This document shows, one piece after another, positions 2,496 through 40,155 of a stretch of 40,418 nt of DNA. Every line of letters starts with the position of its first letter. Position 1 is the stretch's first letter. The notes beneath the pieces were generated by a model that saw only the letters and a program-made list of their open reading frames with translations, searched no databases and had not been told where the DNA came from. This stretch comes from a virus (taxonomy: Duplodnaviria; Caudoviricetes): the IMG/VR virus record IMGVR_UViG_3300033067_000326, positions 1 to 40,418 of that record; one strand, 5' to 3'. Position numbers and translations under genes: made by a program.

Positions 2496-4110
2496 TATCA
2501 AATCAATTTGTATCGTGGGCGGTGGTAGCAGTGGGTGGATGACAGCCGCAGCAATCTCTAAGATGTTGCCCGACATGGAACTAACATTGGTAGAAAGCTC
2601 GGCTATCCCCACAATTGGCGTGGGAGAAAGTACAATTGGGCACATTAATCAATTCCTAACAATGCTGGGTCTTAAAGATGAAGACTGGATGGCAGCGTGT
2701 AATGCCACGTACAAGACTAGTATCAAGTTTATTGACTTTAGGGACAATCCTGGCGAGCAACCTCATAAGTTCCATTACCCGTTTGGTATCTTTGACTTCT
2801 CGGACAAACCACGTGGTGCAATGGAATGGTTTTTAGCCGCAGCGGACCGCGGCGACATTGATCCAAGTAACTTTGCAGAGTTTTATCATGATGCAATTTT
2901 AATGACTGATCAAAACAAACTAACAAAGAACGAAGACTTTAAGATTCGCGGATTTAAGTTTAAGCAAGACACAGCGTATCACATGGATGCAGCTTTGTTT
3001 GGAAACTATTTGCGCGATAATCTCTGCTTGCCATTTGGTATGACACATATCGTTGATACGGTTGATCGAGTAGTACAACGTGAAGACGCAAGCATTGAAA
3101 AGATTGTTACCAAAGAAGGTAAGCACATCCACGCAGATTTGTTTATTGATTGTAGTGGCTTTAGAAGCATATTGTTGGATCAAACACTAAACGAACCGTT
3201 TGTTAGTTTCCACGACACGTTATTAAATGACCGTGCAGTTGCAACAGTTATTCCGTATATTGACAAAGATGCAGAGATGGAAAACTACACATCGTGTACA
3301 GCCATTGAGGCTGGATGGGTTTGGAACATCCCGTTATGGAATCGAATCGGTACCGGGTATGTTTACAGTAGCAAGCATGCAACAGAAGAAGAAGCAGAAG
3401 CTCAGTTCCGTAAACACTTGAAAAGCAATCGCATGATTTTCCCTGATGCAGCACGAGCAGATGAGTGCGAAGTGCGTCACATTAAGATCAAGCATGGTGT
3501 ACATCAACGTGCATGGGTCAAGAATGTTGTTGGGATCGGGCTTGCAAATGGATTCATTGAGCCACTTGAGAGCACAGGACTGATGCTAACTCACGAAGGC
3601 ATTATCAAACTTGTTAGTGCGTTACTGATGCGTAAAGGTCGGGTAAGCAACTACGATGTTGACTTGTTTAACTTTGGATTCCAGGAACAGATTATCGGGT
3701 TTAAGGACTTTATTAGTCAACACTATGCGTTGAGTATGCGCAATGATACGCCGTATTGGCAAGAAGTCTCTGGTAAGGTAACTTACTCACACGGCATGAA
3801 CGGTACTGAAAACTTGGCTGGGTTTAGTCATGGAGCCCAATCTCGCACAGACTTGGCATTTAGGTTGCATCGTAATCGCATGTTTGACCAAGGCATGGGT
3901 GGTATCATTTACATTGCAGCGGGAATGGGATACAATCCAGTAGAATCAAACTTCTTGCGCCACGAAGACGAAAGAGTGCATGAGAGCCCGGAAATGCGAG
4001 CACCTGTGTACGAGAATTGGCTAAAACATAAAGAAGAAGTGCTTGAGCATATCAAGACATTACCGACTCACTACGAATTCCTACGCGATAATATCTATAA
4101 TTCCAAATAA
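2485..4110 (+). CDS. Flavin-dependent tryptophan halogenase family protein (PrnA-like)
   Basis: 541 aa; VGGGSSGW FAD motif, IGVGEST, CNATYKTSIKF (catalytic Lys position), FIDCSGF, WVWNIP (WxWxIP), FIEPLESTG. Confidence 0.9.
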   Translation: MYHNIKSICIVGGGSSGWMTAAAISKMLPDMELTLVESSAIPTIGVGESTIGHINQFLTMLGLKDEDWMAACNATYKTSIKFIDFRDNPGEQPHKFHYPFGIFDFSDKPRGAMEWFLAAADRGDIDPSNFAEFYHDAILMTDQNKLTKNEDFKIRGFKFKQDTAYHMDAALFGNYLRDNLCLPFGMTHIVDTVDRVVQREDASIEKIVTKEGKHIHADLFIDCSGFRSILLDQTLNEPFVSFHDTLLNDRAVATVIPYIDKDAEMENYTSCTAIEAGWVWNIPLWNRIGTGYVYSSKHATEEEAEAQFRKHLKSNRMIFPDAARADECEVRHIKIKHGVHQRAWVKNVVGIGLANGFIEPLESTGLMLTHEGIIKLVSALLMRKGRVSNYDVDLFNFGFQEQIIGFKDFISQHYALSMRNDTPYWQEVSGKVTYSHGMNGTENLAGFSHGAQSRTDLAFRLHRNRMFDQGMGGIIYIAAGMGYNPVESNFLRHEDERVHESPEMRAPVYENWLKHKEEVLEHIKTLPTHYEFLRDNIYNSK

Positions 4111-4119
4111 ATATTGGAT

Positions 4120-4851
4120 ATGATTAACAAACTCTATAGAACAAATTATGGTGGTGAACTGATAGTAAACAGTTCAACCTACTCCAACGGTAAGTGGGAA
4201 TTTGATAAGGAGTTTGTTTATTCTATTATGTCGCCACAACAATTTGGTAAGAGTGCGTTGGTAATAGGGAATGGCATCAGTAGATCAAAGTTTGACCTGT
4301 CTTACATTAAGAATCATAAGAATGGTTCAATTGCAGCAGGCGCATTAAAAACATACGGGTGCAATGCATTATATCGAGACTATACTCCGCATTTCTTAGT
4401 AGCAGTCGGTAAAGAGATAACACAAGAGATTGTTGAGTCCCGCTACACTGAACAGAACATTGTGTATGCTCCAACGGTATCGCATGTTGCCCATCCGCAC
4501 AAGTTCTATAGAATCCCGCAAGATCCAAATTGGCACGCCGGTGCAATTGCAGCATACATGGCATGCTTCGACGGGCACAGCAAAGTTTACCTATTAGGGT
4601 TCGATGGAATTGATTCAGTTAGTCACAGTTACAATCTATACGAAGGCACAAACGGATATGCTGCTTTGCCTTATGGGTATAGTGAAGAATTCTGGGTGCA
4701 AGCAATGACTGAAGTTTTTAGCACATACTCTGAAGTAGAGTTTGTGAGAGTAGCGCCAAATCGAGATTATAGAATTCCTGAAGCATGGAAGTATGTAAAG
4801 AACTTCCGTCAAATTGACTTCAACGAGTTTGCCACTGAAGCAGACTTATAA
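4120..4851 (+). CDS. Maf/DUF115-like (glycosyltransferase-related Rossmann fold) protein
   Basis: LVIGNGISR, YGCNALYRD, G.IAAYMA..G..KVYLLGFD; start moved to ATG 4120, 6 nt after ATAAATA at 4107-4113. Confidence 0.55.
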   Translation: MINKLYRTNYGGELIVNSSTYSNGKWEFDKEFVYSIMSPQQFGKSALVIGNGISRSKFDLSYIKNHKNGSIAAGALKTYGCNALYRDYTPHFLVAVGKEITQEIVESRYTEQNIVYAPTVSHVAHPHKFYRIPQDPNWHAGAIAAYMACFDGHSKVYLLGFDGIDSVSHSYNLYEGTNGYAALPYGYSEEFWVQAMTEVFSTYSEVEFVRVAPNRDYRIPEAWKYVKNFRQIDFNEFATEADL

Positions 4852-13293: not shown

Positions 13294-13624
13294 GACCGGG
13301 TTTCCAGGGCAACTTGCTTTTGTTAACTTCGATTGCACAGTTAGCGCAGATAGTTTTTAAGTTAGCCCAGTTGTTATTGTTTAATTTGCCATCCACGTAG
13401 AACACCTGTAGTTGTTCTTGGTGCTTGGCAACAAAGCCGCATTTTTCGCAATGCGGCTTTTTCTTGTACCCGCTAAGTGCCCATGCTGGCCGTTTGGGCT
13501 TTAATTTCTTGCCTTTTCGTAAGCAGCTATCGCATTGCTTTCGGTAATACGTGATATCGTTCTTTTTACAGTTGATTGCTACCGGCCTTGCATTGCATGT
13601 AGGGCATATTGGTCGTTGATCCAT
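13274..13624 (-). CDS. Zn-finger protein with degenerate HNH-like domain
   Basis: Four CxxC pairs; QVFYVDG..NNN...NL.TICANC lacks the usual His residues; start moved to ATG 13624, 4 nt after TATAAATA. Confidence 0.6.
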   Translation of the reverse strand: MDQRPICPTCNARPVAINCKKNDITYYRKQCDSCLRKGKKLKPKRPAWALSGYKKKPHCEKCGFVAKHQEQLQVFYVDGKLNNNNWANLKTICANCAIEVNKSKLPWKPGPILPDF

Positions 13625-13628
13625 AGTG

Positions 13629-13636
13629 TATTTATA
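13629..13636 (-). promoter_or_regulatory. T4 late promoter consensus TATAAATA
   Basis: Exact match on minus strand. Confidence 0.65.
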
Positions 13637-19780: not shown

Positions 19781-20211
19781 GCAAGTATGCCCAGGGCAAA
19801 TTCCAAATGAAAAATCCTGAGAAGTATGTGGGCAATAAAACACCTACGTACCGAAGCAGTTGGGAATTTATGTTTATGAATATGTGTGATAACAATCCGT
19901 CTATCATGCAATGGGCAAGTGAAGCAATTCACATTAATTATAGAAATCCGCTAACAAATAGAAGCACAATTTATGTGCCCGACTTTCTGATTGTGTATGT
20001 CGATGCTAGCGGAAAACAGCATGCAGAAGTGATTGAAGTAAAACCCACTAAGGAAACTAGCTTAAAAGAAGCCGGTCGCAGCCCAAGAGCACAGGCCGCA
20101 GCAATTGTGAATATGGCTAAATGGGAAGCTGCTAGGGCCTGGTGTAAGCAGCAGGGATTAGTGTTTAGAGTAGTAACAGAAAACGATATCTTCCATCAGG
20201 GAACCAAATAA
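19777..20211 (+). CDS. gp4: Head completion nuclease (T4 gp4/TnsA-like PD-(D/E)xK)
   Basis: NPEKY.G, YRSSWE, WASE, YVPDF, IEVKP, VNMAKWEAA..WC, F.V.TE. Confidence 0.85.
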   Translation: MSKYAQGKFQMKNPEKYVGNKTPTYRSSWEFMFMNMCDNNPSIMQWASEAIHINYRNPLTNRSTIYVPDFLIVYVDASGKQHAEVIEVKPTKETSLKEAGRSPRAQAAAIVNMAKWEAARAWCKQQGLVFRVVTENDIFHQGTK

Positions 20212-20219
20212 ATATCGTT

Positions 20220-20726
20220 ATGACTAAAAAATTAGAAGAGCTCTTCAATCTGCCGCCTACTAAAACTGCACCAGACATGACAGTAGCAGAGGCAGTGGCA
20301 TTCACAGAAGAAAACAAAGACATTATCGCTCAAGTTGACGATGCAATTGACAAAATTGATGCTAGCTTACCACTAGTTAGGGACTTAGAAGCAGGCGACG
20401 AAGAGCTCGATGAGCTAGCAAAATTGGCCAAGGATAAGTTTGAAGACCTAATGGACTTGGGCATGAACGTTGATCCTCGTTTCGGGGGCCCGATTATGCA
20501 AACAGCAGGGGTGTTGCTAGGACATGCAATTAGCGCCAAGACTGCCAAAATGGATAAGAAGCTGAAAATGATTCAGCTACAGTTACAAAAAGCCAAATTC
20601 GATCATCAAGTTAAAAAGGACTCTGCTAAAGGCGGCGACGATGATGAACCAATTGACGGCAAGGGAATGGTATTAGATCGTAATGCATTGCTTGCTCAGA
20701 TTCTGGAAAAGAATAAGAAACAATAA
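20220..20726 (+). CDS. Putative terminase small subunit (gp16-like)
   Basis: Helical 168 aa with LMDLGM..DPR....MQ.A..LL pattern reminiscent of T4-type TerS; in packaging region. Confidence 0.45.
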   Translation: MTKKLEELFNLPPTKTAPDMTVAEAVAFTEENKDIIAQVDDAIDKIDASLPLVRDLEAGDEELDELAKLAKDKFEDLMDLGMNVDPRFGGPIMQTAGVLLGHAISAKTAKMDKKLKMIQLQLQKAKFDHQVKKDSAKGGDDDEPIDGKGMVLDRNALLAQILEKNKKQ

Positions 20727-32617: not shown

Positions 32618-33769
32618 ATGTTACACTCACTTGAACAAAATCCAAAATTAGGTTACTACACTGTAGGTACCAACGCTACCCCAATTTACAATAAACTAGA
32701 TGCCCTTGCAATTGCTGAAAAGACAGGTGCAGTAGTTAATTGGAATTTCAACAGTCATGCTTTCGGCAGTCTTGATTGGACTAAAGAGCCCGAAACTGAT
32801 ATAGACACTTTTTACAGAATACGTGCGCAACAGTTGCGCGATCGTTATGACTACTTGATACTGAACTACAGTGGCGGAGTAGACAGCACAAACGTATTGT
32901 ATTCGTTCCTGAAAAATGGAATACACTTAGATGAAGTGGTAGTTCGTCATCCCGAATCGGCCCTGCGAGATGTTAACATACATACTGACAGCAGCGGCGC
33001 AGCTAATACTATCTCCGAATACGAATACGCAGTAAAACCTCGACTGCAATGGATTAGGGACAATTATCCTAACGTAAAAATAACTGTACATGACTACTTT
33101 GACAGTATGGTTAATGAGGAAATTGATGAGTCATGGATTTATCTAGCTCGTGACTTTTTTCACCCGGGGCTAATTAAGAGATATAGCAATTTAGGGCTCC
33201 GCAGCATGCTAGATCTATACGACAAAGGGAAGACAGTAGGAATCATATTTGGGATAGACAAGCCCAGATTGTATTTTGATCACACTAGCGACAAGTACTT
33301 CTCTTACTTCTTAGACATTGTTGCAAACACTGCAATTAGTGAAAATGGGCAGTACAGTAACATTGCAACTGAGTTCTTTTACTGGACACCCGACTTACCC
33401 GAGATGGTAGTAAAACAAGCGCACATGCTCAAGAAATGGTATACCGCAAATCCGCAGTATAGATCATTGATTGAACTGTATAAGCCTATTGTAGGAGATT
33501 CGCTTGCGTTTGTTGAACGCAGCATTGTGGCTCCTATTGTTTACCCATCAACGCCTAATGTATTTCAATGCGACAAACCGTTTAACTCGATCTTCTCGGA
33601 ACACGATGCATGGTTCTTTGAGCACCACATAGACTCAAAGCCCGGGCAAGTTTGGAGAAGTGGTGTAAATGAACTGCTAAATAATTTTTCAAAGCACATA
33701 CGATTTAATCCCAACGGAAGCCCAGCAGGAGTTAAACTGTTCTGGAGCAAACTATACTCTCTACAATAA
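32618..33769 (+). CDS. PP-loop (adenine nucleotide alpha-hydrolase-like) ATPase, paralog 1
   Basis: LNYSGGVDS; shares GYY.VG, DW..EP, RA.Q.R..YDY, G.DK, EFFYW.PD.P, KQAH with ORF 34598. Confidence 0.75.
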   Translation: MLHSLEQNPKLGYYTVGTNATPIYNKLDALAIAEKTGAVVNWNFNSHAFGSLDWTKEPETDIDTFYRIRAQQLRDRYDYLILNYSGGVDSTNVLYSFLKNGIHLDEVVVRHPESALRDVNIHTDSSGAANTISEYEYAVKPRLQWIRDNYPNVKITVHDYFDSMVNEEIDESWIYLARDFFHPGLIKRYSNLGLRSMLDLYDKGKTVGIIFGIDKPRLYFDHTSDKYFSYFLDIVANTAISENGQYSNIATEFFYWTPDLPEMVVKQAHMLKKWYTANPQYRSLIELYKPIVGDSLAFVERSIVAPIVYPSTPNVFQCDKPFNSIFSEHDAWFFEHHIDSKPGQVWRSGVNELLNNFSKHIRFNPNGSPAGVKLFWSKLYSLQ

Positions 33770-33770
33770 T

Positions 33771-34430
33771 ATGAAAATCGAAAAAACAATTGACCAATGG
33801 AACACCATGTACCCAGCAGGTGCATTCTTAGTTGAACAGAACATCCCCTTAGTCTTGCCCGAGTTTTGCAAATATGCAAGCGTCTACGGATACTGTTTTG
33901 GTGACACTACTATCGAAATTGATGGAAAATTGCACAACCTAGAAAAAGGTCAGTACTTTGGGCTATTTGTCAATCAGACTTGCAAAGTAGCAACCGCTGA
34001 CAAATGCTTTATTGCTGTGCGTCTTGGATACAAGGTACAAAACCAAATCGGATGGATCGAAGACAAAGGGCGACTAACGTACATTGATGGATGCAGCGAT
34101 AGTCTTTTAGTGTATCCTGCCCGTTTAGGCGATTCGAGCTTGAACTTATTGTATTTTCCTGCTAACATTAACCAATCGTTCCACACACACCCTAGCATTA
34201 GGTTAGGATGTGTAGCAAGTGGTTCGGGATTTAGCGATGCAGGGGATGCTGGCGGAGTTACAGAGAACACGTTATCTGAGGGTGTTGTATTTTGTTTAGA
34301 AGAACAAGAGCGCCATAGATTCCGCACAAGCAATTCGCCGATGACGGTTATTGCATTCCACCCAGACGGTGATTGGGGCCCAACAGACCATAATCACACT
34401 ATGCTAAACCGTACCTATATTCAAAAGTAA
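33771..34430 (+). CDS. Cupin-domain protein
   Basis: QSFHTHPSIRLG, E..RHRFRT, VIAFHPDGDWGPTD.NH.M. Confidence 0.7.
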   Translation: MKIEKTIDQWNTMYPAGAFLVEQNIPLVLPEFCKYASVYGYCFGDTTIEIDGKLHNLEKGQYFGLFVNQTCKVATADKCFIAVRLGYKVQNQIGWIEDKGRLTYIDGCSDSLLVYPARLGDSSLNLLYFPANINQSFHTHPSIRLGCVASGSGFSDAGDAGGVTENTLSEGVVFCLEEQERHRFRTSNSPMTVIAFHPDGDWGPTDHNHTMLNRTYIQK

Positions 34431-34453
34431 GTTTTGTTGAGATAAATATCTGT

Positions 34454-34492
34454 ATGATCCATTTTACTATTAACTACATACGAATATCCTAA
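34454..34492 (+). CDS. Putative Ile-rich regulatory micro-ORF MIHFTINYIRIS
   Basis: 5 nt after ATAAATA (34442-48); Ile codons ATC, ATT, ATA, ATA; ends 11 nt before tRNA-Ile(UAU). Confidence 0.45.
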   Translation: MIHFTINYIRIS

Positions 34493-34503
34493 TCAGCAGA
34501 TTT

Positions 34504-34595
34504 AGGAGCGTAGTTTAACGGTAAAACAGCGGATTTATATCCCGTGTGCAACAGATAATTGGCCAATGTCGGTTCGACTCCGGCCGCTCCTACCA
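34504..34595 (+). tRNA. tRNA-Ile(UAU)-like with 22-nt variable region
   Basis: AGGAGCG/CGCTCCT, D stem GTTT/AAAC, GCGGA-TT-TAT-AT-CCCGT, GTCGG-TTCGACT-CCGGC, A-CCA. Confidence 0.8.
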
Positions 34596-34597
34596 AT

Positions 34598-35860
34598 ATG
34601 CAACCCACCCTTTTAACATATAGCAGACAAGATAAGTTTGGATACTATCTTGTTGGTAACGACATTAAGACTTACAGTAAAGTAGAAGCAGTTGAAGTAT
34701 CAAACAGATTGCGTAAACCTTTTAGATGGGTGTTCAACGAGGATGTGTTTTTAAACTTTGACTGGAAGACTGAGCCAACTGAATCCCTTGATGAGCTTTA
34801 CACACAGCGGGCACACCAAATAAGAGAGCAATACGACTACATTGTTATTTGGTACAGCGGCGGTGCTGACAGCCACAATGTGTTACAGAGTTTTATTAAG
34901 AACAACATTTTCGTAGATGAAATTGCACAATTTCATAGCCACGATGGAGACAAGACCTGGGACTCGTACCTAAACGCCGAAGTAGAGAAAGTGGCAATAC
35001 CAGTAACCCAAGAATTGCTAAATTCTATGCCTGGGACCAAGCACAGGGTAGTGGACTTAACAGAATTAGTGGGTAACTTATACAACACAGGCACCAATGC
35101 ACATGACTTCATATACATGTCCAACAAAGTGTTTGCCCCGAACCAGCTAGCTAGAACCTACCTACGTGAACGAATTGCAGACTATCAAGAGCTAATTAAA
35201 AGCGGAAAGAGAGTTTGCTTTGTTTGGGGTGCAGATAAGATCCGTGTCCACCAAGCCGGTGATCGCTACTATGTACACTTCTTGGACTTCATTGATGCAT
35301 ACGGTGTTGGTCCGAGAACACAGCAGCTAAACCGTGATGGGGAGTTTGACGAGTTGTTCTACTGGAGCCCGGATTGTCCAAAATTGATTGCAAAGCAAGC
35401 CCATTTAGTTAAGAACTACCTTCAACATCCCCCAGCAGACGAAATAAACAGCAGATGGCTATCTAATTCGCTCGAAGAGACTTGCACACAATGGACTGGT
35501 CGTCGTATACTACTTCAAAGCAGTCCAACACCAGGTACTGAAGATCAAAAGATGTTCATAACACGGGACGGGTTACACAGGATAATTTATCCTCACTGGG
35601 ATCCGGACACGTTTACGCTAGGGAAACCGGCGAGCAGCATCTTTACTCCTCGAGACGGGTGGTGGCTAAAAGACTCCAATGGGGAATTCCAAAAGAAGTA
35701 CCTAGCGGGAATAGTTAAACTTAGACAGATTCTTGGACTACCCGGAAAGACTCCGGCTAGCATGGACTATGGGATCGAATCAATGATGACAATAGCCAAT
35801 GGCGACATGTCGACACTGAATGTTCGCCCAATGTACAGCCCAAGATATTGGTTAAACTAA
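34598..35860 (+). CDS. PP-loop ATPase, paralog 2
   Basis: IWYSGGADS; start moved to ATG 34598 because the TTG at 34559 lies inside the tRNA. Confidence 0.75.
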   Translation: MQPTLLTYSRQDKFGYYLVGNDIKTYSKVEAVEVSNRLRKPFRWVFNEDVFLNFDWKTEPTESLDELYTQRAHQIREQYDYIVIWYSGGADSHNVLQSFIKNNIFVDEIAQFHSHDGDKTWDSYLNAEVEKVAIPVTQELLNSMPGTKHRVVDLTELVGNLYNTGTNAHDFIYMSNKVFAPNQLARTYLRERIADYQELIKSGKRVCFVWGADKIRVHQAGDRYYVHFLDFIDAYGVGPRTQQLNRDGEFDELFYWSPDCPKLIAKQAHLVKNYLQHPPADEINSRWLSNSLEETCTQWTGRRILLQSSPTPGTEDQKMFITRDGLHRIIYPHWDPDTFTLGKPASSIFTPRDGWWLKDSNGEFQKKYLAGIVKLRQILGLPGKTPASMDYGIESMMTIANGDMSTLNVRPMYSPRYWLN

Positions 35861-39825: not shown

Positions 39826-39834
39826 ATAAAGTAG

Positions 39835-39863
39835 TTGACAGTTATTGAACTGTTTGCTACAAT
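39835..39863 (+). promoter_or_regulatory. Sigma70-like promoter
   Basis: TTGACA-17 nt-TACAAT with TG extension. Confidence 0.8.
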
Positions 39864-39870
39864 AGATACA

Positions 39871-39900
39871 TGTTAAGAAATTAACAAACGTTCTTTAAAA
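39871..39900 (+). promoter_or_regulatory. rrn-like boxB/boxA antitermination leader
   Basis: TGTTAA-GAAA-TTAACA hairpin then CGTTCTTTAAAA (boxA consensus TGCTCTTTAACA). Confidence 0.65.
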
Positions 39901-39917
39901 ATTTAAGTGAAAATTTT

Positions 39918-40003: not shown

Positions 40004-40128
40004 TATACAAACATTCTTGACGGGGTGTGTGCCGGGCTAGAATCCGGTAACTATTTCGGTCTCCTGGCAGAGGCGAAAGTAGCAGTGTGCCAGCACTGTG
40101 GCGAAATTGAGAGTGTTTCTATATGGTG
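39999..40128 (+). ncRNA. Putative kissing-loop structured RNA
   Basis: Closing stem CACCATATA-c-AAACATTC / GAGTGTTT-c-TATATGGTG; three inner hairpins; loops CTGGCA and TGCCAG are complementary. Confidence 0.65.
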
Positions 40129-40155
40129 ATTTAATAAAAACAAAAACAAATTCAT

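Follow-up and report, generated by a model that had tools for sequence, protein, structure and literature searches.

A conserved mini-ORF with a CGA-AUA codon pair ahead of an unusual tRNA-Ile(UAU) gene in uncultured phages and Xanthomonadales may sense AUA decoding

Organization of the locus

The window, i.e., the whole stretch of DNA analyzed here (40,418 bases), is an IMG/VR uncultured-virus record with a completeness rating of 12%, in which 17 tRNA genes were found. A tRNA-Ile gene with the UAU anticodon is preceded by a micro-ORF (hereafter the leader ORF), and its surroundings comprise the following features.

34430: stop of the 219-aa gene upstream of the leader.
34442–34448, plus strand: ATAAATA, a motif resembling T4-type late promoters, 5 nt (TCTGT) before the leader ATG.
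34454–34492, plus strand: leader ORF of 12 codons plus TAA (MIHFTINYIRIS), with homologous ORFs in phages and bacteria.
34463–34477, plus strand: codons 4–8 of the ORF, antisense to the tRNA D arm (34510–34526) in the minimum free energy (MFE) fold.
34478–34486, plus strand: ATA CGA ATA, the presumed pause codons, unpaired between two helices in the MFE fold.
34487–34507, plus strand: predicted hairpin of the ORF end and stop codon (TCCTAATC, 34487–94) with GATTTAGGA (34499–34507), including tRNA bases 1–4.
34504–34595, plus strand: tRNA-Ile, anticodon UAU (34536–38), 92 nt (ARAGORN, Rfam).
34546–34564, plus strand: extra (variable) arm of the tRNA with the 7-base loop CAGATAA (34552–58), the loop being invariant among relatives.
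34598–35860, plus strand: P0001, 420 aa, with an SGGxDS PP-loop motif; its ATG lies 2 nt past the tRNA CCA, without a Shine-Dalgarno sequence.

The leader ORF reads ATG ATC CAT TTT ACT ATT AAC TAC ATA CGA ATA TCC TAA and is separated from the tRNA by TCAGCAGATTT. Ile accounts for four of its 12 sense codons, the final two of which are both ATA. Across 42 window ORFs, ATA is rare (64 of 650 Ile codons, 9.8%), and so is CGA (65 of 531 Arg codons). A preliminary description of this DNA had noted the ATAAATA motif followed after 5 nt by a 12-codon ORF with four Ile codons, the last two ATA, and a downstream tRNA with an AUA-reading anticodon; the former was recovered at 34442–34492, and the latter is the tRNA-Ile(tat) called by ARAGORN at 34504–34595.

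Zero terminator-like sites were detected in 34250–34750, so P0001 is probably on the same transcript as the tRNA. Searches of P0001–P0003 against Pfam, PHROGs and PDB sequences returned only a sub-threshold cupin match for P0002, and the ESM Atlas pointed from P0001 to viral QueC/Asn-synthase-like clusters, which is a lead only. P0001 and the gene at 32618–33769 form a pair of paralogues that share the SGGxDS PP-loop motif and have no Pfam, PHROG or PDB sequence match. They start 2 and 4 nt past the CCA of tRNA-Ile(tat) and tRNA-Arg(tct), respectively, without a Shine-Dalgarno sequence; to judge from this spacing, tRNA processing may create leaderless mRNAs for both. The same tRNA-to-ATG spacing occurs in L086, L022 and L033 among the related loci described below. 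Furthermore, a long inverted repeat (ACCATATAAAAACACA ... TGTGTTTCTATATGGT) surrounds variable inserts between tRNAs in loci L040, L047, L076, L079, L095, L100 and L105, and its right-hand arm is present in the window at ~40004–40155, upstream of a tRNA-Glu.

A family of tRNA-Ile(UAU) with an invariant extra-arm loop

The tRNA at 34504–34595 is a member of the Rfam tRNA family RF00005, scoring 53.7 bits (gathering threshold 29) over the full model (positions 1–71) with a 19-base insertion in the variable region. Its predicted tRNA-Ile identity, i.e., charging by IleRS, rests on the anticodon and on ATA as the conserved codon of the leader. Bacterial tRNA-Ile is not otherwise known to carry a long variable arm.

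BLAST searches of GenBank phages with the 501-nt locus and the 92-nt tRNA gave zero matches. Relatives of the downstream protein (38–43% identity, six loci) were in no case accompanied by a tRNA-Ile(tat), and relatives were therefore sought through the tRNA itself. A 35-base core of the tRNA matched 27 viral contigs exactly, and a looser pattern matched at least 120 IMG/VR stretches, the total being estimated at ~230. The loci were oriented, duplicates were removed and five hits without an ARAGORN tRNA (L099, L117, L122, L131 and L147) were dropped, which left 111 unique loci of uncultured phages among the matches listed. All of these carry a tRNA-Ile(tat) of 90–93 nt, bar one odd call. The D, anticodon and extra arms are almost invariant across the family, and the acceptor stems vary. 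The CAGATAA loop of the extra arm is invariant in 97 distinct tRNAs, with the three loop-proximal pairs of the arm covarying (CAA/TTG, CGC/GCG, CGT/ACG, CCA/TGG). This loop contains GAT, the other Ile anticodon, in surroundings that, in our view, resemble those of an anticodon loop, and the arm could possibly act as a decoy for IleRS or a modification enzyme.

Reading of AUA by a UAU anticodon, and not by lysidine, is shared with the tRNA-Ile(UAU) of Mycoplasma mobile (PMC3575796). The long V-arm is shared with nematode tRNA-Ile(UAU) (PMC3333845, PMC4300185). The arm of the phage and bacterial family differs from both in its invariant CAGAUAA loop, and the abstracts of these papers do not mention a leader ORF.

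The leader ORF is conserved in part of the phage family

Another tRNA ends within 20 nt upstream in 50 of the 111 unique loci among the matches listed, which leaves no room for a leader. An unbiased sample was formed by the 56 unique loci, from the same 111 among the matches listed, whose upstream flank is 110 nt or longer and free of other tRNAs within 20 nt. Among these, ten have an ATG-initiated ORF with in-frame CGA-ATA that ends no more than 75 nt from the tRNA, compared to a mean of 0.08 and a maximum of 1 in 300 dinucleotide shuffles. The reverse complement of the upstream regions gave 0 by the same criterion, and the regions upstream of other tRNAs in the same loci gave 1 of 119, namely L112. 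The other 46 of the 56 loci (among the matches listed) are without a CGA-ATA ORF; together with the 50 array loci, they indicate that the tRNA works without a leader ORF. Thus, the conserved ATA-containing micro-ORFs that the preliminary description had proposed to look for upstream of homologues do occur far above the shuffled level, but most family members do without one.

Metagenomes were also scanned for copies of the tRNA preceded by CGAATA, a choice biased for the motif but not for its frame, and 28 unique loci were obtained. CGA ATA lies in frame within an ATG-ORF in 25 of them; in two it falls inside another tRNA, and in one there is no ATG. A search of viral contigs for CGAATA plus the exact D arm returned only seven loci that were already known.

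The phage leaders sort into about five groups. The leader of the window belongs to those of 12–13 codons, together with L171 (MSHFTIKQIRIS), L053 (MKTFTIKRIRISY), L176 (MYSTTFKRIRIS), L178 and L172; the L010 group (peptide MNHFTFKRIHITH) was placed with them. L092/L106 have a 14-codon leader with three ATA (MMKHFSIAGSISIR), the L026 group has leaders of 8–10 codons (MTVNTHRI), and the leaders of the L032 group have 29–31 codons and end in PRIRIR, PRIRLR or IRISN. In the L135 group (L135, L163, L186, L190), the place of the short leader is taken by a gene of 88–91 aa, which we liken to YggX; this gene ends with CGA ATA and a stop codon at a distance of 9 nt from the tRNA, and a 6-base complement of acceptor bases 2–7 follows the end of the ORF.

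Position and frame are constrained in these ORFs. The distance from ATG to CGA is 18, 21, 24, 27, 72, 75 or 81 nt in the phage leaders, and an ATG located 15–36 nt upstream of CGAATA is in frame with it in 19 of 20 short phage leaders. The stop codon follows in frame 0–4 codons (once 5) past CGA-ATA. Counting the bacterial leaders described below, indels come in threes over seven phage and four bacterial ORF lengths, with the distance from CGAATA to the tRNA ranging from 12 to 61 nt. The relative L171 (97% identity to the window over 262 columns) differs in leader codons 2, 7 and 8, in the hairpin loop and in the bulge, with ATA CGA ATA TCC TAA and both stems unchanged. Since the loci are related by descent, all these counts overstate the number of independent events, which correspond to about five phage groups and one bacterial group.

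Several other causes for the conservation of CGA-ATA were rejected. The motif is not a general repeat (16 copies in the window against 16.2 expected). The R-x-R type is a motif of nascent-peptide arrest, and R-I-R or R-L-R occurs in only some phage leaders, the bacterial ones ending in R-I-P-A. Pairing of CGAAUA with the tRNA was discarded as a general cause as well: the motif is partly paired only in some phage groups, and no complement of it was seen by eye in the Xanthomonadales tRNA.

Two further arrangements were observed upstream of the same tRNA. A second leader type with a long-range stem, AGGATC or AGGATG, ~45 nt and GATCCTGTT(A/T)T, the stem ending 5–8 nt before the tRNA, is present in L037, L044, L063, L068, L069, L078, L137 and L138. 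The leaders of 29–31 codons (L032, L170, L154 and relatives) contain an 8-bp long-range stem (AGACAACC / GGTTGTCT or AAGACAAC / GTTGTCTT), and the conserved MKTT start of these leaders is due to this stem at the RNA level.

The leader ORF in bacteria

Scanning prokaryote genomes, one for each species, gave 75 pattern hits, of which 59 were not tRNAs and were dropped. The 16 hits kept place this tRNA type in 14 Xanthomonadales (Xanthomonas, Stenotrophomonas, Pseudoxanthomonas, Lysobacter, Coralloluteibacterium and Rudaea), one Verrucomicrobiales MAG and one Bacteroidetes MAG. All 14 Xanthomonadales leaders have the same plan: ATG, 8–11 codons, CGA ATA, two codons (five in one leader) and TGA. 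The C-terminal R-I is all that the peptides have in common (for example, MSAYHRYEPGFRIPA, MKIFPRSEYARIPA and MCVPPIDHRIPA). The ATG-to-CGA distance is 24, 27, 30 or 33 nt in the bacterial leaders, and an ATG 15–36 nt upstream of CGAATA is in frame in 13 of 13 Xanthomonadales cases. The leader of the Verrucomicrobiales MAG contains ATA CGA, and the motif is absent from that of the Bacteroidetes MAG. The element occurs sporadically within Xanthomonadales, in 5 of 401 genomes sampled from this order, and it adjoins accessory genes, such as an SprT-like gene and genes with weak TnsA-like and TIR matches. Judged by these comparisons, start, frame, CGA-ATA and stop of the ORF are kept from Xanthomonadales to diverse uncultured phages, together with a –10-type promoter box ~5–6 nt ahead of the ATG and a hairpin that links the end of the ORF to tRNA bases 1–3 or 1–4, and the peptide drifts.

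Promoter boxes and a probable leaderless start

T4-type late promoters consist of a TATAAATA-like box located about 5–6 nt upstream of the start site. At 34441–48 the window has GATAAATA, identical in seven of eight bases to the consensus, and the ATAAATA at 34442–34448 is a candidate late promoter. The motif occurs 11 times in the window, in 10 cases upstream of ORFs on the coding strand. It precedes the leader ATG by 5–8 nt in the window and in 12 relatives (L171, L053, L176, L178, L032, L162, L170, L164, L165, L154, L192 and L179). Three long ORFs of the window (243, 168 and 116 aa) also have ATAAATA 4–6 nt before ATG and no Shine-Dalgarno sequence, at 4107–4122 (start 4120), 20208–20222 (start 20220) and, on the minus strand, 13624–13635 (start 13624); by their layout, they are probable leaderless late genes.

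In the bacterial loci, a TAnnnT box is located 6–9 nt before ATG in 11 of 13 cases, in eight of them at exactly 6 nt. It is preceded by TGn in nine loci, and the rate at random positions is 4.3%. Phage loci L092/L106 and L112 have TTGACA, 17 nt, TATACT or TATAGT, 6 nt and ATG. With the geometry of both promoter classes, the first transcribed base would fall at or beside the A of ATG. No Shine-Dalgarno sequence was seen before the leader ORFs of the window and its relatives. The spacing of the promoter boxes suggests that the leader ORF is probably leaderless, a trait overlooked in the preliminary description. In L010, L022, L033 and L189, the ORF is flanked by two tRNAs and is not preceded by a promoter box, and a leaderless start would there need RNA processing.

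Another leaderless-looking mini-ORF of four codons was noticed just upstream of the tRNA-Leu(taa) of the window, at 39870–39884 (within 39826–39917). It has the arrangement TTGACA, 17 nt, TACAAT, 6 nt, ATG TTA AGA AAT TAA, and its second codon is cognate to this tRNA, which could be chance.

Match between leader codons and downstream tRNAs

Eight long leaders are followed by tRNA-Ile(UAU) and then by tRNA-Leu(UAA). In addition to CGA-ATA, seven of these eight contain CGA-TTA and one contains CGA-TTG, and the 16 short leaders that have no tRNA-Leu(UAA) downstream all lack CGA-TTA. In L112, a sigma-70-type promoter is followed after 6 nt by ATG AAC TAC AAG GCA CAT CAC AGC ATA CGA TTA CGA ATA CGA TAG, then, ~60 nt downstream, by tRNA-Leu(UAA) and, after 3 nt, by tRNA-Ile(UAU). 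A CGAATAC/GTATTCG hairpin spans the stop codon of this leader. In a screen of 118 regions upstream of other tRNAs for CGA plus the cognate codon, L112 was the sole clear match. The regulatory codons thus appear to be cognate to the downstream tRNA, as is typical of attenuation, both for the in-frame ATA and for CGA-TTA with tRNA-Leu(UAA); as L112 and the long leaders represent two lineages, this match is suggestive only. Yeast has a set of conserved inhibitory codon pairs, one of which is CGA-AUA (PMC6379720). The pair would presumably slow bacterial ribosomes too.

Alternative RNA structures of leader and tRNA

The pairing of the ORF end with the acceptor bases AGGA across an AGCA loop and with one bulge, proposed in the preliminary description, was reproduced at 34487–34507; the bulged base is T, and AGGA, with which the pairing ends, corresponds to tRNA positions 1–4. 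That description had also conceded that so short a hairpin might be due to chance, and the computed values agree: the hairpin has –6.8 kcal/mol (z –1.86), and 13 of 200 shuffles fold as well. For the whole precursor, z is –1.21, with 21 of 200 shuffles as good. The hairpin of the window by itself is within chance, and the case against chance comes from relatives.

Individual folding of the distinct leaders of the two short groups close to the window placed the stop codon, paired, in one hairpin with paired tRNA bases 1–3 or 1–4 (seven bases in L172) in nine of nine, with z from –1.8 to –4.6. Covarying hairpins, the second thing to be looked for in homologues, were found as well. The change of TAA to TGA in L176 is compensated by T to C on the opposite arm, and behind the YggX-like gene the acceptors GGCCTG and GGGGCG face leader segments CAGGTC/CAGGCT and CGTCCC, respectively. 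Aligning ten hairpin segments with MAFFT misregistered the arms. The Xanthomonadales hairpins, which include the TGA, have 10 bp at –11 to –20 kcal/mol, and tRNA bases 1–3 take part in the three outermost pairs. The long leaders of the L032 group lack a hairpin of this kind (z near 0). The L026 group has a strong hairpin, with a T-rich stretch behind it, that stands between the ORF and the tRNA and contacts neither, and an antisense element is located inside the 8-codon ORF.

In the models, the hairpin of the ORF end with tRNA bases 1–4 would exclude the acceptor stem, giving the mutually exclusive structures characteristic of attenuation. The MFE fold of 34454–34595 is not a cloverleaf: codons 4–8 pair with the D-arm region, there are 18 leader:tRNA pairs in all, ATA CGA ATA is unpaired, and the hairpin described above closes the end. 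The leader can be viewed as an imperfect reverse complement of tRNA bases 1–26 with the rare codons inserted, and this antisense of the ORF body to the D arm had been overlooked before. In 19 family members, the natural leader favors the leader:tRNA fold over an enforced cloverleaf by 5.4–18 kcal/mol; these energies are approximate, as ViennaRNA does not return a cloverleaf as the MFE structure for the tRNA without its leader either. Compared to 100 shuffled leaders, the preference has p ≤ 0.05 in 15 of the 19 (0.06 for the window). In duplex tests, z was below 0 for 18 of 18 phage leaders, with p ≤ 0.05 in six of the 18, and p ≤ 0.05 was reached by three of 14 bacterial leaders. Taken together, the folding results give moderate support to pairing of the ORF body against the D arm.

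The position of the hairpin relative to a paused ribosome was scored as well. If CGA occupies the P site and the last AUA the A site, the hairpin begins +6 to +9 from the P-site codon in the window, in L171, L176, L178 and L172 and in 12 of 12 distinct Xanthomonadales leaders scored. Ribosomes unwind mRNA up to about +10/+11, and a ribosome paused there would consequently open the pairs that hold the acceptor strand. A ribosome with the first ATA in its A site would leave the hairpin, then at +12, closed. The earlier proposal that a pause at ATA-CGA-ATA would free the acceptor strand therefore fits the geometry at the last AUA, but not at the first ATA.

Proposed mechanism and alternative explanations

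The conserved position and frame of a short leader ORF are a further hallmark of attenuation. Classical attenuation through a transcription terminator was rejected, as 34250–34750 contains no terminator-like site, and a known Rfam leader was rejected too, no Rfam family (T-box included) being found on the leader. Our preferred reading, to which we assign a probability of roughly 0.5, is that the 12-codon ORF is translated, likely leaderless, and that a pause at CGA-AUA opens the hairpin, such that folding of the tRNA and its cutting by RNase P rise when AUA is decoded slowly. Ribosomes would translate the leader ORF from a leaderless late transcript and pause when AUA enters the A site next to CGA in the P site. 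This pause, or the mere transit of ribosomes, would displace the anti-acceptor and anti-D-arm pairings, and the displacement would, as a negative feedback, determine how much mature tRNA is made; the sign of this control is the weakest step.

A translated ORF might also sense AUA and act at another step or with the opposite sign, by Rho-dependent or terminator read-through, through precursor stability or as a positive loop or quality check that lets ribosomes get to the stop codon, and melt the hairpin completely, only if they can read AUA. We consider this unlikely, even though the ORF, frame and codon evidence fits it equally well. The closed hairpin at +12, intact until AUA is read, would agree with it, and so would the strong hairpin and T-rich stretch between ORF and tRNA in the L026 group. 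Against it, the vicinity of the tRNA in the window has no terminator-like site, and hairpins in the window group, like those in Xanthomonadales, run into the tRNA and not into a T run. Moreover, their outer pairs are exactly the first bases of the tRNA, which points to folding or RNase P access as the controlled step.

A quite improbable explanation is that the leader is merely a structured RNA involved in processing or stability, e.g., a site for RNase E/III or for a protein with CGAAUA as its motif, the ORF being untranslated and its frame a by-product. The conservation of the leader:tRNA and local hairpin structure and the missing Shine-Dalgarno sequence would be expected of such an RNA, and the likeness among the peptides (HFT.., TVN..) partly comes from antisense to the invariant D arm. 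Yet 32 of 33 ATGs share the frame of CGAATA, the stop codon is kept within a few codons of the pair, and lengths change in threes. The promoter boxes of two classes make ATG the predicted first transcribed triplet, and where the YggX-like ORF supplies translation, it still ends with CGA ATA and stop. The variable distance between CGAATA and the tRNA, the unenriched CGAATA of the window and the negative Rfam search also speak against this explanation. That a short ORF and a weak hairpin arose by chance in an AT-rich spacer is hardly credible: the statistics of the window alone are weak, as this would have it, but the comparative counts contradict it (10/56 loci against 0.08 in shuffles, 14/14 Xanthomonadales leaders and the frame test).

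In its broader form, the preferred reading describes a self-sensing tRNA gene, whose leaderless mini-ORF would gauge AUA decoding at CGA-AUA and so govern the amount of tRNA-Ile(UAU) that folds and is released by RNase P, and which would be ancient, mobile (in islands of Xanthomonadales and in uncultured large phages) and modular, with CGA-UUA as an added unit where a tRNA-Leu(UAA) is in the operon. We put this forward tentatively, at slightly under even odds.

Comparison with known systems

A search of the literature, in which few subscription journals were covered, retrieved no description of a leader ORF before a tRNA gene or of this tRNA type. Control of tRNA genes is generally ascribed to promoters and turnover. 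If the proposed mechanism is true, tRNA supply would join the targets of ribosome-mediated attenuation, and the prediction that a tRNA gene senses its own demand would be a first. A UAU anticodon may also misread AUG, and such control would explain how mobile elements can carry the risky UAU tRNA at a safe dose. Other tRNA operons can be screened for the same signature: a promoter box, ATG, CGA plus the cognate codon, and a stop codon within a hairpin that includes the tRNA 5' end.

Leader-peptide attenuators of amino-acid operons include trpL, hisL, pheL, thrL and ilvL. The arrangement reported here resembles them in having a short leader ORF that overlaps alternative pairings and whose conserved codons would report the supply of the product. 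However, the product is here a tRNA, and the reporter is one rare pair, CGA-AUA, instead of a run of codons. In addition, there is no terminator, the competing structure is the tRNA's own acceptor and D arm, and the ORF is probably leaderless. In translational attenuation of erm and cat genes (ermBL, ermCL), a pause on the leader ORF melts a hairpin with transcription unchanged, and a paused leader ribosome would likewise free a downstream element on the same RNA in our case. The element freed in erm/cat is a ribosome-binding site and the pause needs a drug and a nascent peptide, whereas here the element would be the 5' end of a tRNA and the pause would depend on codon supply. The pheST (pheM) attenuator and the T-boxes couple the state of tRNA to expression of the translation apparatus. 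They control synthetase genes, with the T-box binding the tRNA directly and without a ribosome, whereas the leader described here is placed before the tRNA gene itself.
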